IMG/VR virus record: IMGVR_UViG_3300023199_000051
Coordinates: 1 to 64,000 of that record
Reading direction: 5' to 3' (one strand)
Length of the DNA stretch: 64,000 nt
Origin: a virus
Below are positions 40,322-64,000 of the stretch, piece by piece; positions within the stretch are counted from its first letter, which is position 1, and each line of letters opens with the position of its first letter. A program made the translations under genes and the position numbers. The notes beneath the pieces are model-generated. The model searched no databases and was not told the origin of the DNA. It was given only the letters and a program-made list of their open reading frames with translations.

Positions 40322-43300
40322 TCAGCCGTCTAGCCGGTAGATCACGCCCCCAGATACCCGGCCCTCTATGGGGAGCTTGAGCTTGACCTTCCGCTGGTAG
40401 GTTCCTCGTGAAGTGCGGCCCGTCTTCACGTCAGAGCGAACCGTGATGAAGGCCGCTCCACCCGGCTTGAGGCGGTCCCGAATCTCGCGCAGCAGTCCCG
40501 CTTGTGCCTTCTTCGGCACCGTGTTGAAGACGTAGGTGGCGAGGACCGTGTTGTACTTCGTGTCTGGCAGGTCGAAGGGACCATGGCAGGGGTCGTAGCC
40601 CTTCACCTGAAGACGCTGTCCTCGCAGCCACTCCACATCCGCACCGTGCCCCGAGCCGTAGTCGAGCACCGGTCCGCGAATCAGACCACGCTCATGCAGC
40701 CACCGCACAGGCGCCGAGGACCCGTTGCGGTGCAGAGCAGTCGGACACGACCGGTCGAGGTCCGCTTCAGTCTGCGCAGCAGGCAGCCGTTCGATGGGGC
40801 CAAGGCCCTGCGCGATTTGGTCCTCGGCCTGGCTATGCGCGTGCAGGTGCTTGGTCAGCTCACGAATCTGCAGCACCGGTCTCGCCCCACCTTCAGCCAG
40901 CGCCTCGACACTGCGTAGCATCCGAAGCAGGGGGTCATGCTGCGCCACAAGCGCATCAAAGGCGCCGGGCCGCCCCAGCTGCTGTTCCAGCATTGGGAAG
41001 ACATCATCTTCCTCGCCGACGAAGTGCTGCTCGCAATCGACCCGGAGCGCGCGCATGCACTTGGTGACCCGCTCCCAGTCGCCGGCCTCCGCGTACCGGA
41101 TCAGCGCAGCACACATGCCACGGATCTCATCATGGTCGTCGGTCAACCACTTCACCGGGTTGGAACCAGGAACATAGGGGCACTTCTCCACCCCAGAGTG
41201 TCCACTCTTGTAGGCCGCGGCGACCTGCTTCAGTGCTTGCTGTGCAGGAACACCGTCCTTGATCATCTTGCTCTGCTCGCGCGCCAGCTTCGTGACGGGC
41301 TCACCGATGATGTCCTCATACGACAGGCCGGCACGACGGGCCACGTCGTAGTTGTGCCGCCGTACCGGACTGAAGGTGTCGTCCAGCGTCTGATCTGTCA
41401 GGGGGCCCATCGGCTGCACGTCAACCCAGTGCGGGCCGCCGTACTCCTGGTGGTGCTCGGGGTGGTGCTGTTGCGCCTTCACCTGCTGCGCATACCCACG
41501 CTGCACCCTCTTCACGAAGGGGGACTCCTCGATCAGATCGACCCCCCAGCCCCACTCGCGCTCATGAGACTCGCCGAACTTCGGCCGGATGGTGATGACC
41601 ACTGGCACGGCCGGCAACCCGAGCTGCATGGCCGCCGCGGCGCGGTGCCTTCCCTCGTGACTCGTGATCTGCTTCTTGTCCCGGTCGTACTGCATCCACG
41701 GCACCGGGAAGCGGTCGCCAGACCGCATGGCCTGTGTGTACTGCGCCACCTTGTCAGGCCGAAGGATATCCACGAGATGCTTCAAGGGGGTTGAGGTCAG
41801 CTCCAGGAAGGCAGTCGGCTTCAGGAGGACGTGCACCGTGTTCCGGTCGTCGTACACGATGGGGATGTTGCGCCTTCGATCTTCATAGTCGAACTGCGGG
41901 GGCACCACCTCCGGCTTGTCCTTGAACCACAGCCGCGGCGCCATCTCGGAGATGAAGGTGTAGCGGAGCGGATCTTCAGAGGGCAACGCCTCAACCGACT
42001 CCTTCAGACGCCCAACGGCCGCTGGGATGGTGTCAAGTCCGTAGACCTGCGCGACGGCGCTCCGATGCCAACCATCCCAGATGCCGATCGCCTGGCCCCT
42101 TGGGTCCTCTATGACGACGATCTCCTCGATGTCACCGCGGCGGATTGCCTCTGCCATAGCCGCAGGGTCGTAGCCCCGCTGCTCGTACGCCCACTGCTCC
42201 TCCTCGAACCATTGCTGCCAGTCGTTGAGGTGGTCGAGCTTTGCAACGGGGTACCGCTCCACGCGCCAATCCATCTCTGCGGGATCGGCCTCTGGTGGGT
42301 TGTCGTAGCGGTACGCAGACGCCCACTCGATCTCCTGTGCGGTTGCAGCGCGTGACGCTCCAGCCGGCAGCTTCTCGATCGGCACTGACGCTTGCTGATG
42401 CACACGCCAGGCAGTCACCTGCGCAAATGGGTATTCCTGCGAGTCAGTAGGCACCCAGACATCGAGAACCCACTGATCAGCTCCAGCTGGAGCCCCATCC
42501 GGCTCTCCGGGCCGGATGACAGACGCCCTGATCTGAGCTTCGGCCATCGCTAGGGGCAGGTAGTCCGATTCGTCGGTTGTGGGGCAGAGCCAGCTTCCCC
42601 ACTCTCCTTCTTCCGCCTCCCACGGGGGCTCCTCAGCCCAGCCTCCCCACCCTCGCAGCAGACAGCGCTCACCCCAACCCTCAGTGGTGACCACCCACCC
42701 ATCTTGCAAGTGCTGCTGTGTCTGAGTGCCAAGGGGTATGGACGCGCCATCAACCCCCCTCACAGCACCTAAAACGGCGCCCCACACCGTATTCGGAACG
42801 CCTGAAGGGCGCCTCTTAGGTAGTCCAGCACTTCGGTGGAGAGGGGCATAGGATCTCTGACCACCACCAACCTCGCGCATCTCCTCGAAGTAAGGGGCTG
42901 CTTCGTCCACTGCCGCTTCTACAGTAGCAGCATCGAAGCTGCGCTCAGACGCCCCCTCGATCTCCTGTGCGGTCGCGGCGGCGGGCACAGCGGTAGCTGC
43001 AGCTGGAAGGCAGTCCCGCCCATCGAAGCAGATGCCAGAGTCGAGCACATCTTGAGCTGGAAGGGCCTCGACACCCGACTTGAACTGCTCCAACTGGATG
43101 ACGGGGATGTACCGCAGTCCCAACAGGCGAGCAGCGAAGGCCCGATGCCGTCCATCTACGAACTGGCCGTCGACGAAGATGATGGGCGGCATCTGCATCG
43201 AGGGGGCTTCACCCATGTTCACACCGGCAGCGCGCCAGGCTTCGCGGGCGAAGTAGGGAGAGTCGTACTCCAGCTTGACAGCTGGCTGTTCCCACTTCAA

Positions 43301-44938
43301 GGGGTAGGCGTCTTCCAGCCAGGTGTTCAGGATCTCGCCGGCGCTGCTATGCGGCCCGAGCCCGGCGGTCTGGAGTACCTGCACGATCTCCATGACGGCC
43401 GCGGGGCCCCGCTCGTCCCAGTGCTCCTCGGCGTCAATGTTGGTGGGCATACCCTGTGAGGTGTCTGCACCTGGAAAGTGCTTGCGGATCTCACGCCACA
43501 CCTCATCCATGGGCAGGGCATCCACTGTGACGCGCGTGTCCGAAGGTAGGAAGGCAACGCCGTAGTCCGGGTCTGGCGGGAGCCCGACGTCATCGGTGAG
43601 CGCCTGGAGGATGAACCCGTCCTCCTGGAAGTGCTGCGGCAGGTCGCCCCACCGGATCGTGCGAGATGTTGCAGTGGGCAGCGTCTCGATACCCAGCTCG
43701 CGGAGTAGGGCGTCGTCCTCTGCAGCCTGGGCCTCCACCTTCAAGGCGTGCGCCATACGCATCCAGTGCAGCTCTTCTCCAGACAGCCCCAGCGTTCGCA
43801 ACTCCCCGGCGCTCAGGTCGGTGCCCAGCTCGGGCACGTCGGACCCGGGGGCGTGGCTCACGCCCAGGTCCGTGATGCGCCACTCCCCAGCCGCGTTCCG
43901 CATCACGTTGCCGCCACGGATGTCGTCGGTCCACACCCCGCGCTCAGCGAGCTGTACCAGGGCGCTCCAGAGCAGCCTCACGTTGTCCTCGATGTTGGGG
44001 GCGAAGTAGGCACTCGCCTTGGCAGTGAAGACTTCCACACCCCTACGACTGTGGCGGCCCTCGACAGCTTCGCGTGCGTCGTGCGCCATGCGACGACCGT
44101 GGTTGTCGAGGTAGCGTTCCCCCGATGATGACAAGGGCTCCAAGTGCTCCTGTACGACACCATACAGACGTCTAGGACCCTGGTACACCGATGGAAGCTC
44201 GACCCCCGGCAGTGTGGAAGGGAAGGCGAACACCAGCGGTGCCCGAGCAACGCCCTTGATACCGAGACGTCCAACGAAGGCCCAGGCCGCAGCGTCGGTG
44301 GGATCTCCGGTGATCTTCAACACCCAACCAGGATAGTCAGGCAACGCATAGGCACAGCCGTAGTTGCCGCAGCCGAGCGCCATCGGGTTGTCGTAGCCGA
44401 CGTCGAGGTCGTAGGGCTTACGCTGGAGCATGATCAGGGCGGCGCGCTGCCACTTGTTGAAGTTGTCGCTGCCCCAGTCATGCTTTCCGAGCCCCCGCGA
44501 TTCGGCATAGGTGCGGGGATTGCCCTTTGGAGGGGCGCCACGAACGGGCAGCTCCTCCTGCCTCTTCGCATACCGCTTCAGCTTCGCTGGCTCTGGTGAG
44601 TAGGCCCATGCCGCCAGGGCCAGGTGCCGGCGGGTGGGGCGGCCGTCGTCCTCCCACAGCGGCTCACGGCCCTCCTGAACCTGTGCCATGTGGCGGGCGA
44701 TGAAGGCGTTGCGGCGACTGCGCCAGTGCTGACCGCTGTGACTGTCTTCGGTGAGCTTGTCGGGGTCACCATCAGCGCGGCGGTACGCGGCGATGAAGCC
44801 TCGCTTGCTCCGTGCAACCTTGCTCACTTTGCGATCCTGCATCTGCGGGACCAGGGCTTCGACCATGGTGAGTGGCAGCCATGCACGCTCGCCGGCCGGC
44901 AGCCCCTCGGTCGTCGTTGCGGTGGAGATCAGCTTCAT
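40322..44938 (-). CDS. About 1538-aa polyvalent protein: N-domain, protein kinase, three ParB-like domains, hemerythrin, SAM methyltransferase
   Basis: LGCGNYG/VLKIT/DIRGGN/TDLG; DGRHR, DGWHR, EGRHR; H..HF..EE..H..H..E; VLDYGSGHG..YDP..YVFN. Confidence 0.85.
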   Translation of the reverse strand: MKLISTATTTEGLPAGERAWLPLTMVEALVPQMQDRKVSKVARSKRGFIAAYRRADGDPDKLTEDSHSGQHWRSRRNAFIARHMAQVQEGREPLWEDDGRPTRRHLALAAWAYSPEPAKLKRYAKRQEELPVRGAPPKGNPRTYAESRGLGKHDWGSDNFNKWQRAALIMLQRKPYDLDVGYDNPMALGCGNYGCAYALPDYPGWVLKITGDPTDAAAWAFVGRLGIKGVARAPLVFAFPSTLPGVELPSVYQGPRRLYGVVQEHLEPLSSSGERYLDNHGRRMAHDAREAVEGRHSRRGVEVFTAKASAYFAPNIEDNVRLLWSALVQLAERGVWTDDIRGGNVMRNAAGEWRITDLGVSHAPGSDVPELGTDLSAGELRTLGLSGEELHWMRMAHALKVEAQAAEDDALLRELGIETLPTATSRTIRWGDLPQHFQEDGFILQALTDDVGLPPDPDYGVAFLPSDTRVTVDALPMDEVWREIRKHFPGADTSQGMPTNIDAEEHWDERGPAAVMEIVQVLQTAGLGPHSSAGEILNTWLEDAYPLKWEQPAVKLEYDSPYFAREAWRAAGVNMGEAPSMQMPPIIFVDGQFVDGRHRAFAARLLGLRYIPVIQLEQFKSGVEALPAQDVLDSGICFDGRDCLPAAATAVPAAATAQEIEGASERSFDAATVEAAVDEAAPYFEEMREVGGGQRSYAPLHRSAGLPKRRPSGVPNTVWGAVLGAVRGVDGASIPLGTQTQQHLQDGWVVTTEGWGERCLLRGWGGWAEEPPWEAEEGEWGSWLCPTTDESDYLPLAMAEAQIRASVIRPGEPDGAPAGADQWVLDVWVPTDSQEYPFAQVTAWRVHQQASVPIEKLPAGASRAATAQEIEWASAYRYDNPPEADPAEMDWRVERYPVAKLDHLNDWQQWFEEEQWAYEQRGYDPAAMAEAIRRGDIEEIVVIEDPRGQAIGIWDGWHRSAVAQVYGLDTIPAAVGRLKESVEALPSEDPLRYTFISEMAPRLWFKDKPEVVPPQFDYEDRRRNIPIVYDDRNTVHVLLKPTAFLELTSTPLKHLVDILRPDKVAQYTQAMRSGDRFPVPWMQYDRDKKQITSHEGRHRAAAAMQLGLPAVPVVITIRPKFGESHEREWGWGVDLIEESPFVKRVQRGYAQQVKAQQHHPEHHQEYGGPHWVDVQPMGPLTDQTLDDTFSPVRRHNYDVARRAGLSYEDIIGEPVTKLAREQSKMIKDGVPAQQALKQVAAAYKSGHSGVEKCPYVPGSNPVKWLTDDHDEIRGMCAALIRYAEAGDWERVTKCMRALRVDCEQHFVGEEDDVFPMLEQQLGRPGAFDALVAQHDPLLRMLRSVEALAEGGARPVLQIRELTKHLHAHSQAEDQIAQGLGPIERLPAAQTEADLDRSCPTALHRNGSSAPVRWLHERGLIRGPVLDYGSGHGADVEWLRGQRLQVKGYDPCHGPFDLPDTKYNTVLATYVFNTVPKKAQAGLLREIRDRLKPGGAAFITVRSDVKTGRTSRGTYQRKVKLKLPIEGRVSGGVIYRLDG

Positions 44939-44999
44939 AGAGACCAATCTAGCACTGCGGTCCCCAGCGCGCTCGGAGCTACCAGGCTACACTTCTGGC

Positions 45000-46754
45000 A
45001 TGGCTACATGGTCCCTCGGTCAGCTCTTCCACTTCATTGCCACCTCGCCAAAGGTTCCAGATGACCGGCGCGAGGCGACGCTGCAGATGATTCTGTCAGA
45101 GCCGGACAAGGCCCGAGCTGCGTTTAGCGGGAAGGGGGAGATCACGAGCGCGTTCTACCCGGAGGCGGAGCTGCGGGCAGGTGCGTGCCCTGTCGGCATG
45201 GAGCACGTTGGACCCGGCGGCGAGTGTCAAGAGAAGCCCGACCTCCCGCGGTTGGCCTACAGCGAGTACGACAAGATCCTGGTGGCCTTCAGTGGTGGCA
45301 AGGACTCCGTGGCCTGCGCGCTTGCGCTGTATGAGCGGCTGGTCGATGAGGGGGTGGACCCTCGCAAGAAGATGGAGCTGTGGCACCACAACGTCGATGG
45401 CTCCGAGGACCAGCCCGTCATCTGGGACTGGCCTTGCACCGAGAGCTACTGTCGGGCCTTCGCCGAGCACCTTGGGGTCCCCTTCCTCCTGCAGTACCGC
45501 AAGGGTGGCATCCACCGCGAGATGTGGCGCACTGACCAGTGTAGTGAGGCTGTGCACTTCCAGACCTGGGAGGACGGGCAGCTCGTGTGGCGTCGGCAGA
45601 AGCGGGATGAGGAGAGGTGCAGTCGCAACACGCGGCGCCGCTTCCCTCAGGTCACCGCGAACCTCGCCACGCGGTGGTGCACGGCCTACGTCAAGATCAT
45701 GGTGGCCGAGTCCGCCATCACCAACGACGAGCGCTTCGACTATGCCACCTACACCATGGTCAGCGGTGAGCGCCGGGAGGAGTCCAACAACCGGAGCAAG
45801 TACGCCGGCAACGAGGAGCACCGCACCAACACGGCCCACCGACCAACCTGGAACAAGGTCTACGAGGTGCGCTTCCTCGACTCCGAGGGGCGTCCCCTCA
45901 AGCCAGGCAAGGCGGGCCGCAAGAAGCGTGTCGACTTCGAGCGTCACAGCGCCATCGTGCATCGTGCCCTGGGCCTTGATCCTGAGATCGGCGTGTGGCT
46001 GTTTGCCAGAGAGGACTTCGCAAAGGCGGCCCGCAGCCAGCTCGTCGAGCGTGTCCTCACTGCCCATGATGAGTACGAGACGTCACGGGGCAAGAAGAAG
46101 AAGCGAATCGAGAAGGAGGCCAAGGCCAATGTAGCGTTCACCGAACGGTGGGAGCTGGTCGAGAACTGGACCTGGGGGAAGGTGAAGAGTGGAAAGGATC
46201 CGGCGAAGGTGCGACGCGGTACCCAGCGGACGCAGAGGTACGCCGATCAGTACCGGCCTGTCATCGACTGGCTAGAAGAGGACGTCTGGGAGATCATGCG
46301 GCGCTGGGGCATCGTCCCACACCCGTGCTACTGGCTCGGGTACTCGCGGGCCAGCTGCATGACGTGCATCTTCCTCCGCGACACTGACCTCACGAACCTG
46401 CGCCAGATCGACCCCGAGCGCTTCGAGCTGCACGTCAAGATGGAGAAGGAGACGGGCTACACCGTCGACCGGGAGATCTCGCTCACCGAGCGAGCCAACC
46501 AGGGCCAGTTCTTCGTCCCACAGCCGGGGCAGGAAACCTACAGTGTGCTCGACCACAACAAGCGCGTACGCCTCGGCCGCACCGCCTTTGAAGAGCTGAC
46601 GTATGAAGAGCGGCACGTCCAATGGCCCCGGTCCATCTACGACTACTGGGAGCCCGTTGCACTCTCTCGCGGTTACACTGGTCCCATCTACACGAAGCCT
46701 GACGAGTGGTACTACCCCGCGGGCGCGTTCCGGCACAGCGGAGGACCTGACTGA
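45000..46754 (+). CDS. PAPS-reductase family protein with a basic insertion
   Basis: AFSGGKDS, WHHNVDG, RWCTAYVK, SGERREES..RSKY, RPVIDW, HPCY.LG.SR.SC..CIF; ATG 45000 follows the promoter motif at 44983. Confidence 0.88.
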   Translation: MATWSLGQLFHFIATSPKVPDDRREATLQMILSEPDKARAAFSGKGEITSAFYPEAELRAGACPVGMEHVGPGGECQEKPDLPRLAYSEYDKILVAFSGGKDSVACALALYERLVDEGVDPRKKMELWHHNVDGSEDQPVIWDWPCTESYCRAFAEHLGVPFLLQYRKGGIHREMWRTDQCSEAVHFQTWEDGQLVWRRQKRDEERCSRNTRRRFPQVTANLATRWCTAYVKIMVAESAITNDERFDYATYTMVSGERREESNNRSKYAGNEEHRTNTAHRPTWNKVYEVRFLDSEGRPLKPGKAGRKKRVDFERHSAIVHRALGLDPEIGVWLFAREDFAKAARSQLVERVLTAHDEYETSRGKKKKRIEKEAKANVAFTERWELVENWTWGKVKSGKDPAKVRRGTQRTQRYADQYRPVIDWLEEDVWEIMRRWGIVPHPCYWLGYSRASCMTCIFLRDTDLTNLRQIDPERFELHVKMEKETGYTVDREISLTERANQGQFFVPQPGQETYSVLDHNKRVRLGRTAFEELTYEERHVQWPRSIYDYWEPVALSRGYTGPIYTKPDEWYYPAGAFRHSGGPD

Positions 46755-47200
46755 TGGCTGACACCAGCACAATCTTGATTGGACTTGGGCTCCTGGGTGC
46801 AGCAGGGGCTGTTGCATACGCCGTCTCCACTGCCAAGGAGGAGGTCGATGAGACCCGCGCGGAGTGGAAGAAGAGCAAGGAGGAGTGGAAGGAGCTGTAC
46901 CGTGAGGGGTACGAGACGGCGACTGCCCCCATCACAGCTGCGCGCGAGACGAAGGAAGCCCTCAAGAAGAAGGGGCGCGTGGTGGTGAAGTCCGTCAGGG
47001 ACACAGCGCAAGACGCAGCCTCGACCCCCGGTAAGAGGGCAGCTGCCCGCGCAGATGCACAGCTGCAAGAGGCCGTCCGCAAAGGAGCTGCGCAGTCGGC
47101 CGCGGAAGCAGCCCGCAGTCCCGAGCCCAGCTCCAGCGGATTCGGTGCCCGCCCTGCTCACTACCGCTACATCGTTCGCCGCGCACGGATCCGTGCTTGA
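46754..47200 (+). CDS. N-terminally membrane-anchored virion-like protein
   Basis: TM segment ILIGLGLLGAAGAVAYAV; C-terminal SGFGARPAHYRYIVRR. Confidence 0.7.
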   Translation: MADTSTILIGLGLLGAAGAVAYAVSTAKEEVDETRAEWKKSKEEWKELYREGYETATAPITAARETKEALKKKGRVVVKSVRDTAQDAASTPGKRAAARADAQLQEAVRKGAAQSAAEAARSPEPSSSGFGARPAHYRYIVRRARIRA

Positions 47201-47994
47201 TGACGACGGATGCTTCCATGCTGCTCTACGGCGCTGTCGGTGCTGCTCTGCTCGGCGGCACTCTTTGGTACCTCTCACGCGACGAGGACGAGGAGGGAGG
47301 GCCAGCCCCCGCGCCGGCTCCGCCGCCGACTCCGAAGACGATCGTCAAGAAGGTCGTTGACGAGCTGACTCCAGGTACGCAAGCTGCGAGGATCTACGCG
47401 GCTTACAAGGGACGCTCGGGCATGTCTCCTGCCCTAGCTAAGCGCATCGTGGATGTTGCCCACGCAGTCGGCGCACATCCCTTCGACCTGGCCAACCTCA
47501 TCAACTGGGAGTCGGGCCGCACGTTCCGCTCCGACATCCAGAACAAGGAGGGGGACCCTCCTAGCTTGGCGACGGGCCTCATCCAGTTCACACCGAGTAC
47601 AGCCAAGAAGCTAGGCACCACCGTCGATGCACTCGCGAAGCTCACCCCGGTGCAGCAGATGTCGTGGGTTCGGAAGTACCTGATGCGCGTGAAGGCCGGG
47701 CAGTGGGACGACAAGACGCCGGGCCCCCTCAACTCGCCGCAGCGCCTGGCAATGGCCGTGTTCTACCCCTGGGCGCGAGAGTGGGATCCCAACGCGAGCT
47801 TCGCCGCGAAGGGGCATGGTCGCGTGCTGGAGTGGAACCCCGGCATCACGAGCCCCGCGGCGTACCTCAACAAGATGGCCCGCGCCGCGAAGCTCTCGTT
47901 CGGTTCGACCATCCCCGAGATCGCAGAGCCCAAGCTGTCCGGGTTTGGCGCTCGCCCCGCCCATTACCGGTACCTGGTGCGCAGGACAGCGTAG
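47200..47994 (+). CDS. Membrane-anchored lytic transglycosylase (lysozyme-like fold)
   Basis: INWES catalytic Glu, ATGLIQFTPSTA, QQ.SWV.KY; N-terminal TM; same C-terminal motif as the upstream gene. Confidence 0.8.
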   Translation: MTTDASMLLYGAVGAALLGGTLWYLSRDEDEEGGPAPAPAPPPTPKTIVKKVVDELTPGTQAARIYAAYKGRSGMSPALAKRIVDVAHAVGAHPFDLANLINWESGRTFRSDIQNKEGDPPSLATGLIQFTPSTAKKLGTTVDALAKLTPVQQMSWVRKYLMRVKAGQWDDKTPGPLNSPQRLAMAVFYPWAREWDPNASFAAKGHGRVLEWNPGITSPAAYLNKMARAAKLSFGSTIPEIAEPKLSGFGARPAHYRYLVRRTA

Positions 47995-48078
47995 TCCGTG
48001 AGGGGGTTGCAGCCTACTAAGTAGTAGGAAGCCGCTTCTTCGGTTACCATGGCTGCACCACCAACCAGGAGCACCACT

Positions 48079-48273
48079 ATGCTGTCCGATCGCGCAATCG
48101 CTGGAATCCTCTTCGGCTCCATCGCCGGAGTCATCATCCAGGACAACAGCAAGACCATCCAGAAGAGCGTCACCAAGAACCCCGCAGCCGCCGCGGCCGG
48201 TGGCGCCGCTCTCCTGTCGGGCGGCGACTACGCCTACCGCAAGTTCTCCGAGAAGAAGAAGAAGAGCGCCTGA
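48079..48273 (+). CDS. Small membrane protein, paralogue A
   Basis: SDRAIA...DYAYR; AGGAG RBS. Confidence 0.65.
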   Translation: MLSDRAIAGILFGSIAGVIIQDNSKTIQKSVTKNPAAAAAGGAALLSGGDYAYRKFSEKKKKSA

Positions 48274-48476
48274 TGATCAGCGACCGCACCATCGCGCTGT
48301 CCATCTTCAGCGTCATCACTGGCGCTGTGCTCTCCGACAAGAGCAAGTTGTACCAGGAGTACGTGACGGACCGTCCAGAGGTGGCAGCACCTCTGTTCAC
48401 TGGAAGCGTGCTCGCGGCTGACTACGCCTACCGGACCCTCACCGAAGACGGATCACAGACACCCTCGGAGACCTAG
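48273..48476 (+). CDS. Small membrane protein, paralogue B
   Basis: SDRTIA...DYAYR; TGATG-coupled. Confidence 0.65.
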   Translation: MISDRTIALSIFSVITGAVLSDKSKLYQEYVTDRPEVAAPLFTGSVLAADYAYRTLTEDGSQTPSET

Positions 48477-50408
48477 ATGGCCAAGCTCCCCGTCCGGCAG
48501 ACGCAGACCGACGCGGAGCGCCACATCTTCGGGGCGCTTGTAGGAGGAGCAGCCGGCACAGCCCTCGGGCAGGTGATCGGCGTGCCCTTCATGCCCAGCG
48601 GGGTCGCGGGTGCTCTTGGTGGCATCGCGCTCGCACGCTGGGACATTGAGCAGGACAAGAAGGACACAGGGGTCTCGATCGGCCAGATCGAAGAAGACCC
48701 ACAGCTGTCCGACAACGAGCGGCTGAACATCCGAGAGCGCATCAAGCTCTTTCGTGCACGGCAGCAGCAGCGCAAGGATGCGCTGGCCCTCGCAGGGCAG
48801 CAGGCTAACCAGCTGGCCGATGACCTGGGCGCCACCGCCGAAGCTGTCGAAGCAGCGGCGGAGGAAGGGCACGACATTGGTGATGCGCCTACAGCCCTGT
48901 CGAGCAGGCTGCAGCGGGTGCGCAGCGCCTTCGGCCGCATCAAGCGGGCAGCGCAGGCCGCTGCCGATGAGGAAGAGGAACGAGCGCAAGAGCTGTACGA
49001 GGAGCTGGAGGCCACGCGCAAGCGCAACAAGACGCTTGGCTACATCGCACTTGGCGGCACACTCGGCGCGCTGGCTGGGTACATGGTCAACGACACCGAA
49101 GGGAGCGTAGCTGGCAGCTTCTTCGGTGCCGCGGCAGGCCTGATCACAGCGGGCATCATCACGTCCGAGCCCACCGCCGAGGACGATCTGGTGGTGTCTG
49201 GCCTCGACGACGAGGTGGGGTTCGGACCTGGTGGCGCCATTCCGTACCGGTCGTGGGCCGAGCTGCAAGGAGGCCCCGGCCCTTGGTCCATGGAGCGCTT
49301 GTTCCTGGCCAGTCAGTACAAGCCAGACCGCTTCGGCTGGGCTGCACTGCCCTCCACGCAGAGCGCGTACGGGCCAGCCTTCGCCAACACCCCGGCCGCC
49401 ATCCCCGGCCCTGGCGGCGTGCCACAGTTCGGTACGGGCTTCGGCCCTGCCTACCTGAACATGCCGCACGACACAGCACCTGGCCTTGTCACACCGCCAA
49501 GCTACGCCTACCAGCAGGACGTCTCTCCGCGAGCTGCAGAGGCAGCGCGAGTCTTCTCCGGCCACCTGCGGCGCCGCGGCATCGAGGTCAAGCACGCTTT
49601 CTTCCGATGGCCTGGCCCCGCCCGCGCGCACGGCACGACCTATGCGCCAAGCTGGGGTGAGCATGCTGCTGCACAGCGCATCGCCAAGCGCGTGGCGCAG
49701 CGTGCCAACCTGCACGCGGTCCTCTTCACCGGATCGGAGCCGGGCACCTACACCATCCACTTCACCGACAACCCCACCGTGCTGATGGCGCAAGCTCAAG
49801 GTAGAGGCGCACAGACGTCGCAGATCGCAGGTGTCGGGTTCCTCGGCGAGGAGAGCATCTCCAGCGCTACCTCATACGCCGCAGAAGGTCTCGATGGCTT
49901 TGGAGACTACATCCTTGGCGGCCTTGCTGGTGCAACCGCTGGGGCCTACCTCGCTGGAGAGAAGCAGCGCACCTCTGGCGGGGTCGCTGGGTTCTTGTCC
50001 GGCATTGCTTTGACGTGGCTCACGGATCCCGGCCCCCTCCCTCCCGTCGTCACCGAGCGCGGGGACATCGCCCGCGACGCCTTGGAGATGATCGAGGATG
50101 GCAACGTGGGCCGCGTGCTCACCATGGGCATCTGGGGACCTGCCGCCTACTGGGCTGCCACAGAGGCCGAGCATCCCATCCTGGCAGTCGGGTTGGCGGT
50201 TGGTGGTGTGGGCATGGTGGCGGGTGCTGCGCGGAGCTACGCGCGCACACAGCGGCTCCGCTCACGTCTCGAAGCTGCCACCAAGCGTGGTCCTCAAGCC
50301 AAGCTCATCACAGAGGAGGAGGCAGCAGCTGGGCGCATCATCGACGATCCCGAGATCCTGGAGAAGCTAGCGACTCCCAAGAAGCAACTGCGGAGGTTAT
50401 CGCTATGA
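48477..50408 (+). CDS. 643-aa glycine-zipper/coiled-coil membrane protein (virion or ejection-like)
   Basis: Several GxxxG hydrophobic hairpins, coiled coil, recurring GFG motifs. Confidence 0.65.
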   Translation: MAKLPVRQTQTDAERHIFGALVGGAAGTALGQVIGVPFMPSGVAGALGGIALARWDIEQDKKDTGVSIGQIEEDPQLSDNERLNIRERIKLFRARQQQRKDALALAGQQANQLADDLGATAEAVEAAAEEGHDIGDAPTALSSRLQRVRSAFGRIKRAAQAAADEEEERAQELYEELEATRKRNKTLGYIALGGTLGALAGYMVNDTEGSVAGSFFGAAAGLITAGIITSEPTAEDDLVVSGLDDEVGFGPGGAIPYRSWAELQGGPGPWSMERLFLASQYKPDRFGWAALPSTQSAYGPAFANTPAAIPGPGGVPQFGTGFGPAYLNMPHDTAPGLVTPPSYAYQQDVSPRAAEAARVFSGHLRRRGIEVKHAFFRWPGPARAHGTTYAPSWGEHAAAQRIAKRVAQRANLHAVLFTGSEPGTYTIHFTDNPTVLMAQAQGRGAQTSQIAGVGFLGEESISSATSYAAEGLDGFGDYILGGLAGATAGAYLAGEKQRTSGGVAGFLSGIALTWLTDPGPLPPVVTERGDIARDALEMIEDGNVGRVLTMGIWGPAAYWAATEAEHPILAVGLAVGGVGMVAGAARSYARTQRLRSRLEAATKRGPQAKLITEEEAAAGRIIDDPEILEKLATPKKQLRRLSL

Positions 50409-50785
50409 GTGCCGCAGCAGCAGCCGTTGCAGCCAGCTCTGACGTCCGTATCGAGCCTTCCTCGGTTGCCGGCTTCGTCGCGGTCGCCGGTCCCCGTCGA
50501 GGGCGCCGTCGCGGCCGTCGAGGGCGCCGTCGCCGTGGCCGCTGGAGCCGACCTCTCCCTGGACCCGGCGGCGGAACCTTCCGGCGATGGGTAGGGCCTG
50601 GAGGCATCAGGCCACGCAGGCGTAGAAGGCGCCGCCGTCACTGGCGTCGTGGGTTCTCATACGGCCCGTACTACTACGGTGCGCCGTGGTGGTGGTACGG
50701 GTACGGGCCCTACATGCGCTGGCTGATGTGTCGGCGCCGCGGCTACCCCTGGTGCCCACCACCGCCTCCACGCTACTGGTACTAG
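50405..50785 (+). CDS. Arg-rich protein with Ala-rich leader and aromatic tail (candidate DNA-condensing core protein)
   Basis: PRRGRRRGRRGRRRRG...RRRRRRRRHW...YYYGAPWWWYGY; ATGA-type overlap. Confidence 0.55.
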   Translation: MSAAAAAVAASSDVRIEPSSVAGFVAVAGPRRGRRRGRRGRRRRGRWSRPLPGPGGGTFRRWVGPGGIRPRRRRRRRRHWRRGFSYGPYYYGAPWWWYGYGPYMRWLMCRRRGYPWCPPPPPRYWY

Positions 50786-50793
50786 GAGGCTGC

Positions 50794-51192
50794 ATGCTGT
50801 TCCCTGACAGCTACGAAGGCGCACTTGAAGACGCACCACCTTGGGTCCGCGAAGCGTGGAGCGCGTACCAGCAGCTGCCCGAGGACGAGCAACTTGCAGT
50901 CCCCTTTCTGTACTTCGTCCTGGGTCGGAAGGGGACACCCCCCTTCAAGGTGAGCAAGGACAACGCGCTGTACTTTGACCCAAGCCCCGTGAAGGGTGCA
51001 CAGTGCAGTGGGTGTCCCTTCGCCTACGAGAAGGTCACGAAGCGCGGTCGCTTCATCTGCTCGCAGATCCGCGGCACCATCGAGCCGGACGGGTGGTGCG
51101 TCATTCCACACCTACGAGGGGTCTGGAAGTCGTTGAAGGCATCGACGATCAACAAGCTGATCGACCGCGTTGAAGATCGGCGATCTGCGTAG
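50794..51192 (+). CDS. HiPIP-like 4-Cys (4Fe-4S) protein
   Basis: ALY..P...QCSGC...CSQIRGTIEPDGWC; GGAGG RBS. Confidence 0.65.
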   Translation: MLFPDSYEGALEDAPPWVREAWSAYQQLPEDEQLAVPFLYFVLGRKGTPPFKVSKDNALYFDPSPVKGAQCSGCPFAYEKVTKRGRFICSQIRGTIEPDGWCVIPHLRGVWKSLKASTINKLIDRVEDRRSA

Positions 51193-51261
51193 AGGTGCGG
51201 GAGGCACCGTGCTAGGTTGAGGCTGCCGTCTCACCAACAGCACCACTCCAGGAACACCGCC

Positions 51262-53802
51262 ATGTCAGACAGGTTCATCCCCCCGCACAACCACTCCGTG
51301 GATGACCTCCCTGTAGGGAAGGGGCCAGGCAAGGTGGCCCTCTGGGTCGATGTCGCGTCCCTGATCAGTGCTCCCTCTCTGGATAATGCCTACCAGAACG
51401 GCAGTGTGATCACCACCACCCCAGGCAGTGGGGACGTGGTGATCGGAGGCGATCAAGACTTCATCCTCTCGACGTCCGGGGCTGTCAACCAGACCGGATC
51501 GGGCCAAGTCACGTTCAGCGGCAACGTTGACGCAGACGCGGGGCTCGACGTTGTTGGAGGCAGCTTCACCCATGCAGCTGGAGGTACAGGTGACGTAGAC
51601 GTGGCCTGGGACTTCTCGGGTGGCGTCACCATCAGCGGCGACAACCTGACCGTCAATGACGGTGTGCCTGTGGTCTTCGGCGACGACAGCAACTGGAGCG
51701 TGCAGTACGACGAGGCGGGTAGTGATGCCCTGGAGGTTGCCGGTGCGGCCCAGACGGCCGACAACACAGCCGGCTACGGTCTCTCCGTCACCGGTAGCCA
51801 GGGTGGATCCACACCAGACGGGACAGCTGCTGGTGATGGCGGTCCGCTGTCCTTCACCTCTGGCGCTGGTGGTGCAGGCAGCGCCACGGGAGCTGGTGGT
51901 GACTCTGGAGACGTGCTCCTCGACGTTGGTGCAGCTGGCGCTGATGGTGGTGGAGGGGCAGGTAGCACGGGCACCGTCAAGATCGGCGGCACGACGGTCA
52001 ACCCGATCGAAGCCACGACGGCTGCCGACGAGCTGACCGCCATCGCCCTGCTCACCAACACCACCGAGTCTGCGGGCTTCTTCGTGGGGTCCAGCGACCC
52101 CAGTGGCACGGTCACTGGGGCCGCCGCCTCGCTGTTCCTACGCGACACCGGAGCTGGCGGCGAGGTCTACGTCAACACCTCAGCCGGCAGCGGTACGACG
52201 TGGACACAGCTCGGGTCTGGAGGCGGCGGCATCGGAGGCAGCGTCGGCACGATAGACAACGCCATCCCCCGCGCGGATGGTGCGGGTGGTTCCACGCTTC
52301 AAGGTGGCGCTTCCAACGACAATGTGATCCTGGAGGACAACGGCCACCTGCGTCCAGAGGTGGACAGCGGCGGCCGGCTCGGTACGGCGACCTTCGGCTG
52401 GCAGGAGCTGCATCTCTCATCCGGCGGTGACATCATCTTCAACAACGACATCACCATCCGAGATGCCTTCGGTCCGCTGTTCTTCGAGGACGCGACGGCC
52501 TACCGGTTCGATTCTGATGTGACTCCCCGGACGGACGGTGGAGGCAGTCTCGGATCGGCCGGTGTCCCGTGGGGCAGTGTCTACATCAACGAGGGTGATG
52601 ACATCAACTGGATTGTCAGCTCGGCGACCGACGTAGCGATCAACCACATCGAAGACAAGCTGACCTTCACCGGCGCGACCATTGGCTACGTCTTCGAAGA
52701 CGGCCCTGTCGGCATCGATCGTCTCGCAGCCAAGCCCGCAGCCATCAACGGCTCCATCCAGCTGTGGGGCGGGCAGATGTCAGGGGGTGTGCTGCAGCTC
52801 GGGATGATCGATGGCATCAACGACTTCGAGCGTGCCGTTGTCGGGGTCTGGGACTTCGGCATCCTACACTCCGCACAGCTCCGTGACTCGGGCTTCTCGA
52901 ACAACCTCTCGATCCGCCAGGCCACTGGATGGTGGTTCCAGGGTGTCGCCGCTCCGACGTCCGGGGACACCTTCACTGTCACCGACGGGTCGACCTCGCG
53001 TGTCTACGGGTTCGACGCTGGCGGTGACGTCGTAGTTGCCCTGGGCGCTGACAACACCGAGACCATGCGCAACTTCGTCGCAGCTGTGAATGGGGACGGG
53101 TCGAGCCTATGGGGAGCACGCTTCATCTCCCACCTGCGAAACGCGGCCGACGGTGCAGTGGTGATGTACCGCCTCGACCAGTCGAGCAACAGCTTCGACG
53201 ACCGGATCTTCGCTTCGCTGTCGACGGGTACCATCCAATACTTCAACCTGGAGAACGACGTCGACTACCGGGCCTTCGGCGTGAGTGGGTCGACCAGCAT
53301 CCCCAGCTCCGATCCGGGCGTCAAGACGTTCGGGCCCGGCCGCCGCTTCAACGAGACGACGGGCGGCCTGGTCTTCTTCAGCTTCCTCGAAGGCCGCATG
53401 TTCTACGCGGACTACACGAGAGCTGAGGGTGCCTGGGAGGAGATCGACCCGATGGTGCGCCGGTTCGTCCGTGTTGCCACGGACAGCAACATCGCCGATC
53501 TGTCAGCAGGTGCCCCTGACACCACCGACATGATAGCCCTTGCCGCTGGGGACCTTGTGCTGGTCCGATCACAGACGGCCACCGCGGAGAACGGCGTGTA
53601 CTTCGTCGAGTCGGTGGGCACGGGCTCGGACGGCACCTGGGAGCGCGTGAGCTGGTTCAACGCTACCTCGGAGGATGGGCTGTCTGCCGGGCTGGAGATC
53701 TACGTCCAAGAGGGCGCTGTCCGCGAGAAGACCACCTACACGCTCACCACGACGGGCGCGGTTACCATCGACACCACAGGCCTCACCTTCGAGGCACTGT
53801 AG
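51262..53802 (+). CDS. Long fibre/spike protein
   Basis: Gly/Thr-rich beta repeats; C-terminal VRVAT...GDLVLVRSQT...ENGVY...W.R...V.EG fibre module. Confidence 0.75.
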   Translation: MSDRFIPPHNHSVDDLPVGKGPGKVALWVDVASLISAPSLDNAYQNGSVITTTPGSGDVVIGGDQDFILSTSGAVNQTGSGQVTFSGNVDADAGLDVVGGSFTHAAGGTGDVDVAWDFSGGVTISGDNLTVNDGVPVVFGDDSNWSVQYDEAGSDALEVAGAAQTADNTAGYGLSVTGSQGGSTPDGTAAGDGGPLSFTSGAGGAGSATGAGGDSGDVLLDVGAAGADGGGGAGSTGTVKIGGTTVNPIEATTAADELTAIALLTNTTESAGFFVGSSDPSGTVTGAAASLFLRDTGAGGEVYVNTSAGSGTTWTQLGSGGGGIGGSVGTIDNAIPRADGAGGSTLQGGASNDNVILEDNGHLRPEVDSGGRLGTATFGWQELHLSSGGDIIFNNDITIRDAFGPLFFEDATAYRFDSDVTPRTDGGGSLGSAGVPWGSVYINEGDDINWIVSSATDVAINHIEDKLTFTGATIGYVFEDGPVGIDRLAAKPAAINGSIQLWGGQMSGGVLQLGMIDGINDFERAVVGVWDFGILHSAQLRDSGFSNNLSIRQATGWWFQGVAAPTSGDTFTVTDGSTSRVYGFDAGGDVVVALGADNTETMRNFVAAVNGDGSSLWGARFISHLRNAADGAVVMYRLDQSSNSFDDRIFASLSTGTIQYFNLENDVDYRAFGVSGSTSIPSSDPGVKTFGPGRRFNETTGGLVFFSFLEGRMFYADYTRAEGAWEEIDPMVRRFVRVATDSNIADLSAGAPDTTDMIALAAGDLVLVRSQTATAENGVYFVESVGTGSDGTWERVSWFNATSEDGLSAGLEIYVQEGAVREKTTYTLTTTGAVTIDTTGLTFEAL

Positions 53803-53827
53803 TCACCCCCTGACCTCGGAGGCCTCC

Positions 53828-54136
53828 ATGGCCCTGCAGCTGTCCTACGACGACAAATACGGCTCCACGCACAAGGCCGCCTACCACATGGTCGGCAGCT
53901 TGAGGATCAGCCGACCCCGACAAGTCGGGATCTTCGTGATCTGGACGTACGTCGACCAGGCCGCACGGGCCAAAGGCGCGAAGCCGCTCCGCAGGCTGGA
54001 GTACATCCTCACAGGCGACGACTACGAGGCAGTCTTCGGCGAGAAGGCCACGAGCCCTGCAGGCGCCAACGTAGTAGCGAACATCTACGGGCACCTCAAG
54101 AAGCTCGAAGAGTGGTCGGACGCCCTAGACGTGTAG
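53828..54136 (+). CDS. Fibre-associated small protein (assembly chaperone-like)
   Basis: MAL..Y...AY...Y.D.AAR...Y.HLK.L.EW.DA.DV pattern; directly after the fibre gene. Confidence 0.55.
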   Translation: MALQLSYDDKYGSTHKAAYHMVGSLRISRPRQVGIFVIWTYVDQAARAKGAKPLRRLEYILTGDDYEAVFGEKATSPAGANVVANIYGHLKKLEEWSDALDV

Positions 54137-54161
54137 GACTGCCGCAGGGGCGCTGTACGTC

Positions 54162-54761
54162 CTACTGCTTGCCGGTTGCCGCGACTTCCTGCCGGAGCTT
54201 GACTGACCTGGGATCGAAGCGCAGCTCGACCCGCTGCCCTTCACGGCTGATGGGTAGGTCGATACCAGCGTGAATCACCCAGGCCTTGACGAACTCCAGC
54301 AGCTCACCGGCTGGAGCGTGCAGACCAGGACCGCAGTGGTCTTCGCTGTCCTCTGCGCTGTGAGGGGGGATTGGGAGATGGAAGGCGCCCCTGGCCCCCT
54401 CGAAGCGCCAGTTGACGTTCCACCTACGGAGGGCCTCCTCCGCGGTCCACGCCCACGCCATGTCGAGGTACACGACGGTGGGGAAGATGATCGCGTCGAC
54501 TGCGTCCGAGACATCCCGCACGCAGGTCCATACGCGCGCGTTCCGGCCATCGGACACGCTGATGGGTTGCCACCCGTGAGCGAGCACGTCCTCCAAGCTC
54601 CGGTAAGCTGGACCCCCCCAGCTCGTGCCGGCCGGTGTGATGAAGCTCGCCTTGAGCGGTGGTGGGGAGTTTGGCGTCGCGAGGGGGCGTCTGTGCGGCA
54701 CCTCAAACTCGGCCACGGCGAAGTAGCAACCACGCAGGGGTGGCTTGTGCTGCTGTCTCAC
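54162..54761 (-). CDS. Hypothetical protein
   Basis: GTGA-coupled to the macrodomain gene. Confidence 0.5.
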   Translation of the reverse strand: MRQQHKPPLRGCYFAVAEFEVPHRRPLATPNSPPPLKASFITPAGTSWGGPAYRSLEDVLAHGWQPISVSDGRNARVWTCVRDVSDAVDAIIFPTVVYLDMAWAWTAEEALRRWNVNWRFEGARGAFHLPIPPHSAEDSEDHCGPGLHAPAGELLEFVKAWVIHAGIDLPISREGQRVELRFDPRSVKLRQEVAATGKQ

Positions 54762-55465: not shown

Positions 55466-55504
55466 AACACCTGTTGCACATCATGCACAGGTCACGCACT
55501 CATG

Positions 55505-57127: not shown

Positions 57128-57130
57128 CGA

Positions 57131-57936: not shown

Positions 57937-57945
57937 GGAAGCCTC

Positions 57946-61773: not shown

Positions 61774-61775
61774 GC

Positions 61776-61994
61776 TCACCCTGCCTGCATCAGCGCGCCC
61801 ATGACGTCCCCCATCTCTGGGAGCCGCCCCTCGCTGTGTACGACCGTGAACAGCTGATCCATCACCGTGTAGGAGGGATCCCCCTCCGTGATGCGGTGCT
61901 CGGTGACCCCTTCTGAAGACTGCAGGAACAGGGCGAGGCAGCCCTGTTCTCTTCGGATCCGTACTGTGACCTCTTGTACCTCTTCCACTCTCAT
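61776..61994 (-). CDS. Small hypothetical protein
   Basis: AGGGG RBS before ATG 61994. Confidence 0.45.
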   Translation of the reverse strand: MRVEEVQEVTVRIRREQGCLALFLQSSEGVTEHRITEGDPSYTVMDQLFTVVHSEGRLPEMGDVMGALMQAG

Positions 61995-62038
61995 CCCCCT
62001 TGATCCGCCTGCCCGAACCGGGCAGATCTCCGCCCCAT

Positions 62039-64000
62039 TCACAGCCCTTCGAGCTTGCCGACCCGCTTGCACTGGTAGCAACCTGATGCACGCTTGCACC
62101 GCACTCGGTTCCCCGCGTTCACTTGGACCTCGTTCAGCTTCTCACGGTGTCCCTGCTCGCAGGTCGTCCATACGCGAAGGGGCAGCGCTTCGAGTCGCCC
62201 GACATCGGCGCCGGCACTCTTGGACACGCCAAGGTCGATGATCTTCCAGTTGCCCTCGGCGTCCTGCATCACGTTGCCGCCGTGCAGATCGCCCCACTGC
62301 ACACCGACTTCGTTGTGTAGCGCCTCGATGGTCGAGATCACGCGCTTGTACTGCTGGAGCTGATCGCTGTCGAGCATGGCTCGGGCCCAGCCATCCAGGT
62401 TCTCCAGGGCCTCATCCAGCTCGGGATCTTGCCTGTCCCATCCACGGGTGAGGAGGATAGCAGCCAGGGACCCGGCTGCGGATGAGCCCAGGAAGTCCTC
62501 GGCTCTCCAGTCCAGCGGCTTCAGCTTCTGCTGTACGATGGCCCACAGCGGCTCGCCGTCAGGCATGGGAGTCAGCGCGTAGACGCAGTCGATGCGGGCC
62601 AGTGCGGGTAGCTCGGTCCAGTCTTCGTGATCGAGGACCACTTGTGCAGCAGCTGCCTCACTCCAGTCCGTTGTGAGCTTCACGACCTTGTCGGGATCAT
62701 TCGTCAGGTCGTAGACGCAGCCGTAGGTTCCACACCCGAGGTGCTTGTCTCCAAGCGGGTAGCCGTGCTTGGCGAGGATGCTCTTGGCCGCGCGCTCCAG
62801 CCGGGGCCACTGCGCGCGTCGCAGGTAGGCGCTGGTCGACACGACGTCATCCCCATCACCAGAGACGCGGATGCGATCGCCCCCTGCAACGCAGGCTACG
62901 GCACCAGCGGGCAGCCGCTCGATGGCACGCTGTACACCACGCTGCTGCCCCACGCGGTCTTCTGCCTCGCTGAACTTGCGGAAGGTCACCTCAACGGGGC
63001 CTTCGAGCGACCAGTCCCATTCCCAGTCCCGGGTGCCGCTTCCGAAGGCGAAGCCCGTGTCGAAGGTGACGCCGAGCCGGCGCAGCAGCTGCTCGACCTC
63101 GAAGAGGGTGCCCAGCTGCTCGCGGGTGAGGTTGGGCCCGAAGCTGATACCGACATCGACCGGACGTCCACGGTCATCATGTGCGTGACCACGCCCCGAC
63201 TGCTCGGCATCCAGCAGCATCTCGGCGAGCCTGCCCTTGAGCCGCTTCTGTGCACCCCGACGCGCCTTGTGCTCAGTCCTGCCTCGGGCGACCATGTTGC
63301 CGTGCTGGTCATACACCACCGTGTACTTGCGCGTAGCGCCTACGCGGTAGCCTGGCGGTAGTTGCGGCTTCAGAGCGCTCTCGATGGAAGACTGCGGCAC
63401 GCGGAGCGCAGCAACCTGGTCTGTCACGAGCGTCGAAGCGTCGATGACGATCTCACCAGGCCGCGGGTCGACGGGCGGCACCATGCTGGCAAATGGGTAC
63501 GGGCTGCCTTGCGGTGGGAGCACGAACACGAGCTGCTGTTCAGTCTGTGGGTTCATCAGGGCCACGAAACCGCGGGAGTGCGGCGGCGGCTCCACGCGCA
63601 CGTTGAGGAGCTTGAAGCCCACCAGCGGCGGCTTTCGACCCTGCACGCGCTCGATCAAGTCTGACAGGTAGCCCTGCTGTGTCTTCGTGAGCAGATCGAC
63701 AGAGCCAGTCCCTACAGCCGCTCTCATGCGGGGGGTTGGGCTTGTCCCCGATGTCCCTCCGTACTCAGCTTCCAGGTAGTCGAGCCAGCGGTCCGGGAAG
63801 ATGGCCGTTGGGGAGGGGACACTCTTCCTGGGAGCCTTGGGCCGCTGCCGTGCCTTGCTTGTCGCGCCGCCTGGTAGCCCCTCCGCGTAGGCTGCGTACC
63901 TCAGTCGCTTCTTCACAGGCCGTACGACGACACCGACTGCGATGGGAGACGATCGGTGTCGCCAGATCGCATTGAGCGTGCTGGCACGCTTTCGCCACTG
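62039..64000 (-). CDS. Multidomain protein with protein kinase and C-terminal Zn ribbon (5' truncated by window edge)
   Basis: Frame stays open from 63916 to 64000; LGCGTYG, VVKLT, DLHGGN, IDLG; terminal CEQGH...C..CYQC. Confidence 0.8.
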   Translation of the reverse strand, partial: QWRKRASTLNAIWRHRSSPIAVGVVVRPVKKRLRYAAYAEGLPGGATSKARQRPKAPRKSVPSPTAIFPDRWLDYLEAEYGGTSGTSPTPRMRAAVGTGSVDLLTKTQQGYLSDLIERVQGRKPPLVGFKLLNVRVEPPPHSRGFVALMNPQTEQQLVFVLPPQGSPYPFASMVPPVDPRPGEIVIDASTLVTDQVAALRVPQSSIESALKPQLPPGYRVGATRKYTVVYDQHGNMVARGRTEHKARRGAQKRLKGRLAEMLLDAEQSGRGHAHDDRGRPVDVGISFGPNLTREQLGTLFEVEQLLRRLGVTFDTGFAFGSGTRDWEWDWSLEGPVEVTFRKFSEAEDRVGQQRGVQRAIERLPAGAVACVAGGDRIRVSGDGDDVVSTSAYLRRAQWPRLERAAKSILAKHGYPLGDKHLGCGTYGCVYDLTNDPDKVVKLTTDWSEAAAAQVVLDHEDWTELPALARIDCVYALTPMPDGEPLWAIVQQKLKPLDWRAEDFLGSSAAGSLAAILLTRGWDRQDPELDEALENLDGWARAMLDSDQLQQYKRVISTIEALHNEVGVQWGDLHGGNVMQDAEGNWKIIDLGVSKSAGADVGRLEALPLRVWTTCEQGHREKLNEVQVNAGNRVRCKRASGCYQCKRVGKLEGL

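Follow-up and report, generated by a model that had tools for sequence, protein, structure and literature searches.

A hemerythrin-bearing candidate polyvalent protein of an uncultured phage, with a recurrent motif at its module borders

The gene and its reading frame

Polyvalent proteins are regarded as the first weapons that a phage delivers, and few of them have been studied. Here we describe a candidate member of this class, encoded in the IMG/VR virus record IMGVR_UViG_3300023199_000051, a 178,164-bp record with direct terminal repeats of which the first 64 kb, positions 1 to 64,000, make up the stretch analysed (the window). The gene is one unbroken minus-strand frame of about 4.6 kb, with 1,541 codons from a TTG, and its product is composed of eight modules in the following order: a DUF6321-like module A, a protein kinase (module B), a ParB/Srx module C, an orphan module D, two further ParB/Srx modules E and F, a hemerythrin, and a methyltransferase (Table 1). 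A short motif, E-x-[L/C]-P, stands at eight out of eight module borders and nowhere else in the protein.

The probable start of the gene is an ATG at position 44938, three codons inside the frame, from which the ESM Atlas record also begins. The G+C content at third codon positions (GC3) is 0.76, a typical value for the coding frames of the genome, and the record has a completeness of 100% (CheckV). The genome comes from a metagenomic assembly, which is the point in favour of regarding such a long open reading frame (ORF) as an artefact, whether a chimeric assembly or separate genes run together by sequencing errors. This explanation would, however, have to be reconciled with a 4.6-kb frame without interruption and with gene-like GC3, a contig closed by terminal repeats and rated complete, relatives of 1,082-2,310 amino acids with a similar fusion in independent metagenomes, and an in-frame border motif at every junction, all of which make an artefact extremely improbable. 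The ORF is a single real gene of an uncultured 178-kb phage.

Table 1. Features of the multidomain gene and of a second giant gene reaching into the window (positions are those of the window)
Feature	Residues	Positions	Strand	Description
Whole ORF		40322..44947	minus	1,541 amino acids counted from TTG 44947; stop codon 40322-40324
Border motif 1, TEGLP	14-17	44897..44908	minus	E-x-L-P near the N-terminus
Module A	~19-130	44558..44893	minus	DUF6321-like, unknown function; most widely conserved module
Border motif 2, QEELP	131-134	44546..44557	minus	Module A / kinase
Module B	~136-419	43691..44542	minus	Protein kinase-like, most of the C-lobe missing
Border motif 3, IETLP	421-424	43676..43687	minus	Kinase / C
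Module C	~425-626	43070..43675	minus	ParB/Srx fold (DGRHR), conserved HWDxRGP region, disordered insert
Border motif 4, VEALP	627-630	43058..43069	minus	C / D
Module D	~631-857	42377..43057	minus	Trp/Gly-rich orphan, homologue not found
Border motif 5, IEKLP	858-861	42365..42376	minus	D / E
Module E	~862-985	41993..42364	minus	Second ParB/Srx-like module (DGWHR); homologue P0134, E 5e-26
Border motif 6, VEALP	986-989	41981..41992	minus	E / F
Module F	~990-1253	41189..41980	minus	Third ParB/Srx-like module (EGRHR, core ~1030-1125) and helical tail of unknown function
Border motif 7, VEKCP	1254-1257	41177..41188	minus	Before the hemerythrin; E-x-C-P form
Hemerythrin HHE domain	~1258-1385	40793..41176	minus	Pfam PF01814
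Border motif 8, IERLP	1386-1389	40781..40792	minus	Hemerythrin / methyltransferase
Class I S-adenosylmethionine (SAM) methyltransferase	~1390-1541	40325..40780	minus	Pfam Methyltransf_23
Second polyvalent giant, C-terminal part		62042..64000 (frame 62042-71323 of genome, 3,094 amino acids)	minus	Paralogous kinase, NUDIX, six E-x-L-P sites

Module A and the kinase module

Module A scores 24.6 bits against Pfam DUF6321 (PF19846), short of the gathering cut-off of 28.5, and this sub-threshold hit is the sole match when six separate segments of the protein are searched with Pfam. The module is matched by 7/20 members of the DUF6321 family at E<=0.01 and, judged by its sequence, looks like a sister family of DUF6321. 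An exhaustive phmmer search with residues 1-1200 as the query gave 812 hits, the best 150 of which were mapped back onto the protein; 125 matches to module A are found among these best 150, both in stand-alone proteins of about 110 amino acids and within giants of up to 3,186 amino acids. The comparison of its profile with the PDB by sequence gave nothing meaningful.

The kinase module displays the motifs expected for a protein kinase: a glycine loop (GCGNYGC), the lysine of VLKIT, VQE, DIRGGN, and DLG. In an alignment of residues 131-420 with the paralogue from the same genome and three short homologues (five sequences), the glycine loop GCGxxGC, the V-x-K-x-T lysine, V-Q-E, D-x-x-G-N, and D-L-G are invariant. 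The profile built from these five sequences retrieves 935 PDB sequences at E<=10, with a best E of 5e-5. Each of the 60 highest-ranking hits is a Ser/Thr kinase, matched over the catalytic loop and the DFG-like DLG. The window protein itself stays below the cut-off of Pfam Pkinase (PF00069), and the whole-protein Pfam search reports no kinase model, whereas its homologue P0002 (E 1e-26 to the window kinase module) passes that cut-off of 31.7 with 40.9 bits. Most of the kinase C-lobe is missing, since the module stops about 60 residues past DLG. Kinases without a C-lobe and with a conserved Gln have been described for polyvalent proteins (PMC5512222), and both the truncation after DLG and the conserved motifs of the alignment fit the description of the Kinase-PolyVal clade given there. 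The kinase profile found zero relatives in 185,579 species genomes, and distant relatives only in IMG/VR, with 23-40% identity.

Three ParB/Srx modules and an orphan

For module C, the comparison of its profile with the PDB by sequence gave nothing meaningful. An AlphaFold model of residues 421-630, built from a nine-sequence alignment, has a mean predicted local distance difference test score (pLDDT) of 81.4. When this model was compared exhaustively with 48,161 chains, only 13 of them reached Z>=2. ParB/Srx proteins occupy the first nine places: sulfiredoxin leads (Z 6.7, 78 residues aligned, root-mean-square deviation 3.5), and SerK (Z 5.5), KorB, Osa, SbnI, Atu1540, PadC, and pNOB8 ParB are also among them. 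Foldseek searches with the same model against the PDB and viral models also point to ParB/Srx, with weak E-values. Module C has stand-alone homologues (P0009, P0011, and P0012).

Modules E and F were modelled together (residues 858-1260), with a mean pLDDT of 55, ranging over 74-87 in the E part and 52-74 in the F part. The F part matches sulfiredoxin (Z 6.5), SerK (Z 5.7), and SbnI (Z 5.2), and the E part matches PadC (Z 5.0). Module F also has weak PHROG ParB matches, and N-terminal domains of its type occur in P0002 and P0039. When the three DG[RW]HR/EGRHR cores are joined in one profile, 16 of its 22 matches are ParB, Spo0J, sulfiredoxin, SbnI, and Noc proteins (best E 0.004), and the core motif aligns to the GERR motif of ParB. 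The three modules share with the ParB/Srx enzymes (sulfiredoxin, SerK, SbnI, Osa, PadC, KorB, and ParB) the predicted fold and the arginine motif G-x-H/R-R; module C differs from these enzymes in its long insert and in the extra conserved HWDxRGP region. Contrary to the partition ParB proteins, the window modules have neither helix-turn-helix nor dimerisation domains, and they remain below the cut-off of Pfam ParB_N (PF02195; 12.4 bits against 26.3, E 0.17).

The likeness among modules C, E, and F is confined to the DGxHR core of 20-50 residues, and each module has a separate set of stand-alone homologues. Because of both features, the comparison of their sequences indicates that they are three different subfamilies and not the product of a recent triplication.

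Module D is placed between the first two of these modules. No homologue of it was found with Pfam, by mapping of the exhaustive hits, in a word-index search of residues 631-1250 against shorter proteins, or in the ESM Atlas, whose features for residues 631-860 gave no usable match. It has a weak similarity to module E (z 3.6), and because of this faint resemblance it may be a degenerate copy of that module. A 48-nt direct repeat (83% identical), at 42303-42350 and 42933-42980, lies just after two module borders and encodes a leader, AATAQEIE[W/G]AS, common to modules D and E, which suggests a duplication or recombination joint between the two.

Hemerythrin and methyltransferase

The hemerythrin domain is recognised by PF01814 over residues 1264-1378 (E 3.9e-16, 60.1 bits against a cut-off of 25.3). 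The series of metal ligands (H, HxxxE, H, HxxxE) is intact in it and does not vary among seven polyvalent hemerythrin modules. Neither the 2017 survey of polyvalent proteins (PMC5512222) nor the 2021 survey of jumbo phages refers to hemerythrin in its main text.

The C-terminal module matches Methyltransf_23 (PF13489) over residues 1424-1504 (E 1.8e-11, 44.5 bits against a cut-off of 27), and the SAM-binding motif GxGxG is visible in the translation as LDYGSGHG. No DNA-methylase motif of the DPPY/NPPY type was seen in its sequence. Among its homologues, P0054 and P0037 have E-values of 1e-38 to 1e-40, and P0156 is 63% identical.

These results bear on a preliminary description of the gene, made from the letters alone, which had proposed an ePK-like kinase, three ParB/Srx-like domains (DGRHR, DGWHR, and EGRHR), a hemerythrin HHE domain, and a class I methyltransferase, and had named failing profile searches as the outcome that would speak against them. 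Every named domain is instead supported: the kinase by the PDB profile search, with its top 60 Ser/Thr kinases, and by P0002; the ParB/Srx domains by the joint profile and the two AlphaFold models; and the last two by Pfam models above their cut-offs. Its wording of the ParB-like domains as triplicated, in contrast, does not hold for three subfamilies that resemble each other over the core only. To that list we add the N-terminal DUF6321-like module A and the orphan module at residues 631-857.

A motif at every module border

The enrichment of E-x-L-P in this protein is pronounced: seven sites are present against 0.68 in shuffled sequences, and 0 of 20,000 shuffles reach seven. From the other genes of the phage, where 25 sites occur in 54,418 residues, 0.71 would be expected. 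The codons vary between the motif sites, and because of this variation selection acts at the level of the peptide. The border at residue 986 falls in a low-confidence linker of the model of modules E and F.

The motif is also found in relatives, where it reads [VI]-E-[RK]-L-P or takes a variant form carrying M, C, S, or R. Seven exact sites flank the kinase and GGACT modules of P0003, which has additional variants, and P0021, P0026, and neighbouring giants are punctuated as well. The E-x-C-P form precedes every related hemerythrin module, even when the hemerythrin is the first module of the protein.

Three other explanations for the motif were considered and discarded. A sortase-type LPXTG signal would require a Gly at +5, which is missing, and the context is cytoplasmic. 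The resemblance to a 2A-like ribosome-skipping peptide (D-V/I-E-x-N-P-G-P) is superficial, as there is no NPGP. A recombination repeat acting at the DNA level does not agree with the varying codons, yet the 48-nt repeat does lie just after two of the borders.

Similar motifs are seen elsewhere in the genome. A 330-residue ORF on the plus strand (11905-12894) contains a well-fitting border-type sequence, GIEWLPAAP, at residue 61 of its stop-to-stop frame, and could be a further carrier of the border signal, going by this one site. An N-terminal motif of the type P-H-x-H-x-[VI]-[DE]-D-L-P occurs in ORFs at 51193-53799, 57571-57945, and genome 108686-110296, at least one of which has tail-fibre-like PHROG matches; the motif probably belongs to the N-termini of tail fibres and has no relation to the border motif.

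Relatives and module shuffling

The same domain order was not found in the word-index searches, in IMG/VR, or among the best 150 of the 812 exhaustive hits (residues 1-1200). A word-index search of the whole protein against proteins of near length gave no match, and no close relatives were found in IMG/VR or, by DNA, in the phage collection. The best 150 of the 812 phmmer hits form blocks over residues 20-130, 127-378, 422-626 (stand-alone proteins of about 200 amino acids), and 864-982.

The modules themselves recur in a variety of combinations. P0039 carries a ParB-like domain, Metallophos (a phosphatase), a kinase, and a hemerythrin; P0005 a hemerythrin, module A, and a kinase; P0024 a hemerythrin and module A; P0054 and P0037 module A and a methyltransferase homologous to that of the window protein; and a 1,260-residue neighbour of P0003 NUDIX, a kinase, and a hemerythrin. 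In one relative, kinase and hemerythrin adjoin, at 974-1185 and 1193-1318 of the stop-to-stop frame. Hallmark domains of polyvalent proteins are also present in the relatives, namely ART-PolyVal, 2H-SAK, Metallophos, NUDIX, GGACT, and GNAT. In a JGI contig of 123,644 bp (L003), four neighbouring genes between them carry the same repertoire. Both this contig and a second phage-like one (L005) have the same modules split among neighbouring genes, and in one of the two an IS605 OrfB/Cas12f-like TnpB gene is located directly upstream of the polyvalent gene.

By these sequence matches the modules are independent evolutionary units, found alone and in other orders in metagenomic phage proteins. Since the hemerythrin is repeatedly among the shuffled modules of these relatives, it is, as far as they represent the clade, a recurrent component of it and no one-off. 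The preliminary description had regarded the architecture as unrecognised, which stands for the order of the domains, unmatched in the relatives, but not for the set of modules, which recurs shuffled with the hemerythrin included.

Searching phages with tblastn gave one weak match, Vibrio phage D479, the sole match in a cultured phage. The matching stretch (102424-103005) resembles the hemerythrin end plus the methyltransferase, runs across two adjacent hypothetical genes, and sits just after the genes for the major head protein and a late sigma factor.

Genome context

PHROG matches to baseplate-hub/peptidase, tail-fibre, and minor-tail proteins are found downstream, at 47035-57130, and these tail-protein matches argue against a tailless virus. 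The virion module must be very divergent, because no HK97 capsid, S77, or S78 model matches in the genome. At genome 89-106 kb, nine to ten large ORFs, among which a capsid or protease was sought, have no Pfam or PHROG match. The ORFs of this region (89000-106000) are large and look highly expressed, and one of 342 amino acids has a GC3 of 0.92.

Two other giants are encoded by this phage. The C-terminal kinase of the 3,094-residue giant, which runs into the window at its far end, is 32% identical to the window kinase module. Immediately 3' of this giant, on the minus strand (60700-62118), there is a 473-residue frame with matches to DUF1232 (E 2e-8) and phrog_14750 (E 2e-23). The other giant, a 2,518-residue DarB-like methyltransferase-helicase on the minus strand (genome 81439-88992), matches phrog_11801 (E 4e-152) and phrog_10089, a DarB-like antirestriction family, and is the third polyvalent-type protein of the phage.

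The gene upstream of the window protein is divergent (44742-46751, plus strand) and matches a phosphoadenosine phosphosulfate (PAPS) reductase-like family (phrog_424, E 1.8e-30). The gene that it adjoins combines three ParB/Srx modules with a dnd-like methyltransferase, and the pair may represent a Dnd-style theme. By analogy with the Dnd/Ssp systems, the two genes would form a DNA-modification or anti-restriction device, with the ParB/Srx modules as DndB-like, the PAPS reductase as DndC-like, and the methyltransferase as dnd-associated components. The N-terminal part of the methyltransferase does match TIGR04096, a DNA phosphorothioation-associated family (E 1.7e-9), and DndB and DpdB, both of the ParB superfamily, accompany DNA-modification enzymes (PMC10853773, PMC12839542). 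However, the TIGR04096 match reaches 37 bits against a cut-off of 150 and spans model positions 7-84 out of 478, the generic SAM-binding part only; a PAPS reductase is encoded near none of the relatives examined; and such a pathway has no role for the kinase, the hemerythrin, or module A. We therefore hold a DNA-modification device to be improbable.

A probable polyvalent protein with multiple effectors

The window protein is, in our view, probably a polyvalent multi-effector protein of the phage. The preliminary description had already placed it in this class, and the mix of domains and the phage encoding agree with the definition of Iyer et al. 2017 (PMC5512222): disparate activities are joined in one phage-encoded chain, near tail-family genes. 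As in the proteins of that survey, many unrelated enzymatic domains share one chain near virion genes, and the modules also occur solo; kinase, ParB/Srx, and methyltransferase are themes catalogued there, and relatives of the window protein carry ART-PolyVal and 2H-SAK. Unlike them, the window protein has a hemerythrin and lacks the zincin-like peptidase, its kinase and ParB modules fall outside the survey-derived models PF18762 and PF18763, and E-x-[L/C]-P stands at every border. No peptidase domain was detected in it with Pfam, in the whole protein or in separate segments.

Precedents for the processing and packaging of polyvalent proteins are available (PMC5512222). The large anti-restriction proteins DarB, DdrB, and DarA of phage P1 are packed inside the head and reach the host together with the DNA, some of them being proteolytically processed, and the window phage has a DarB-like giant of its own. 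The ParB modules of the window protein differ from DdrB in having no detectable similarity to it (hhalign probability <2%). By comparison with these P1 proteins, the window protein might be made late, loaded into the virion, and then enter the host with the DNA, a course for which we see the chances as evenly balanced. Once inside, the kinase would phosphorylate host proteins, by analogy with that of T7, for which a broad counter-defence role is reported (PMC13645617). The ParB/Srx modules could be NTP-dependent nickases, NTPases, or small-molecule kinases (NTP, nucleoside triphosphate), the methyltransferase would modify a substrate that is not typical of DNA-base methylation, and the hemerythrin would be a di-iron module that responds to, or detoxifies, O2, nitric oxide (NO), or redox stress.

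What the border motif does is a separate matter. Taken most simply, it would be a signal for processing or recognition, and its distribution suggests that the chain is processed into separate effectors. It is possible rather than expected that the motif serves as a protease or docking site through which the chain is cleaved, either inside the capsid or once it has entered the host. The head proteases of T4-like and phiKZ-like phages cut after L/I-x-E or S/A/G-x-E, and short N-terminal leaders target proteins to the capsid. The border motif resembles these sites in the invariant Glu of a short motif and in the copy located 10-13 residues from the N-terminus, like a leader, whereas in the window protein [VI]-E-x-L-P is conserved past the Glu, and S77 and S78 are not found in the genome.

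The alternative would be a cytoplasmic multi-enzyme, neither cut nor packaged, where E-x-L-P is a linker, a module-start cap, or a docking motif, and where the hemerythrin regulates its neighbours in cis on one scaffold. No protease or capsid-targeting domain was found, the motif is kept without an upstream module, as in P0005 and P0024, which begin with the hemerythrin form, and the adjacency of kinase and hemerythrin in one relative suits regulation in cis, as is the case for the bacterial hemerythrin-diguanylate cyclase fusions, which are redox-regulated in this way. Nevertheless, a five-residue motif kept across unrelated folds and distant phages exceeds what a passive linker needs, tail-like genes lie nearby and the genome encodes a DarB-like giant, and relatives that split the modules over several genes show that the covalent link is not required. 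An uncut scaffold of this kind is, for these reasons, unlikely.

A bolder extension of the polyvalent multi-effector reading, offered tentatively and with less than even confidence, is that these giants make up an undescribed class of polyproteins. In such a class, [V/I]-E-x-[L/C]-P would guide a dedicated protease or a loading factor, and a capsid-loaded chain would give up to eight effectors, including a hemerythrin that senses or detoxifies O2, NO, or redox stress in the newly infected cell. Hemerythrin is known as a cargo of the HK97-fold shells of Family 1 encapsulins, where it is reported to protect against oxidative and nitrosative stress (PMC8346489), and a hemerythrin released from a capsid-loaded giant would parallel this cargo as a di-iron protein tied to a virus-type shell. 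The encapsulin hemerythrin is, by contrast, a separate small cargo protein of bacterial nanocompartments that bears a targeting peptide at its C-terminus, and that of the window protein is a module of a phage polyprotein.

Several observations weigh against the polyvalent multi-effector reading or against the processing proposed within it. The ParB/Srx assignments are moderate in score (Z 5-6.7, E 0.004), and the model of modules E and F has its mean pLDDT of 55. At E<=1, the Kinase-PolyVal model PF18762 has no match in the protein or the whole genome, and the DdrB-like ParB model PF18763 has none in the genome. Nothing in the genome matches Pfam's head-protease models, S77 (T4-type) and S78 (HK97-type), or its HK97 capsid model. 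The motif is also present 4-13 residues from the N-terminus of the window protein and of hemerythrin-first relatives, where it fits a cleaved leader and, equally, a module-start tag without cleavage. Finally, expression, packaging, injection, and cleavage are steps that we infer from sequence.

Implications

The class of polyvalent proteins is already known, and what the window protein would add to it is a recurrent hemerythrin, three unmodelled ParB/Srx subfamilies, a kinase clade that seems to lie outside PF18762, and a conserved border motif. Both the presence of a hemerythrin in a polyvalent protein and that of E-x-[L/C]-P at every border appear to be undescribed. If our reading is true, a metal- and oxygen-sensing domain joins the polyvalent repertoire, three distinct ParB/Srx subfamilies for which there are no models come into view together with a widespread DUF6321-like module, and the E-x-L-P border motif, which is kept in distant uncultured phages, would provide a simple and testable handle on the processing of these chains. 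Should the motif be a cleavage signal, module borders would become predictable in many uncharacterised phage giants, and the protease that acts on them could be sought.

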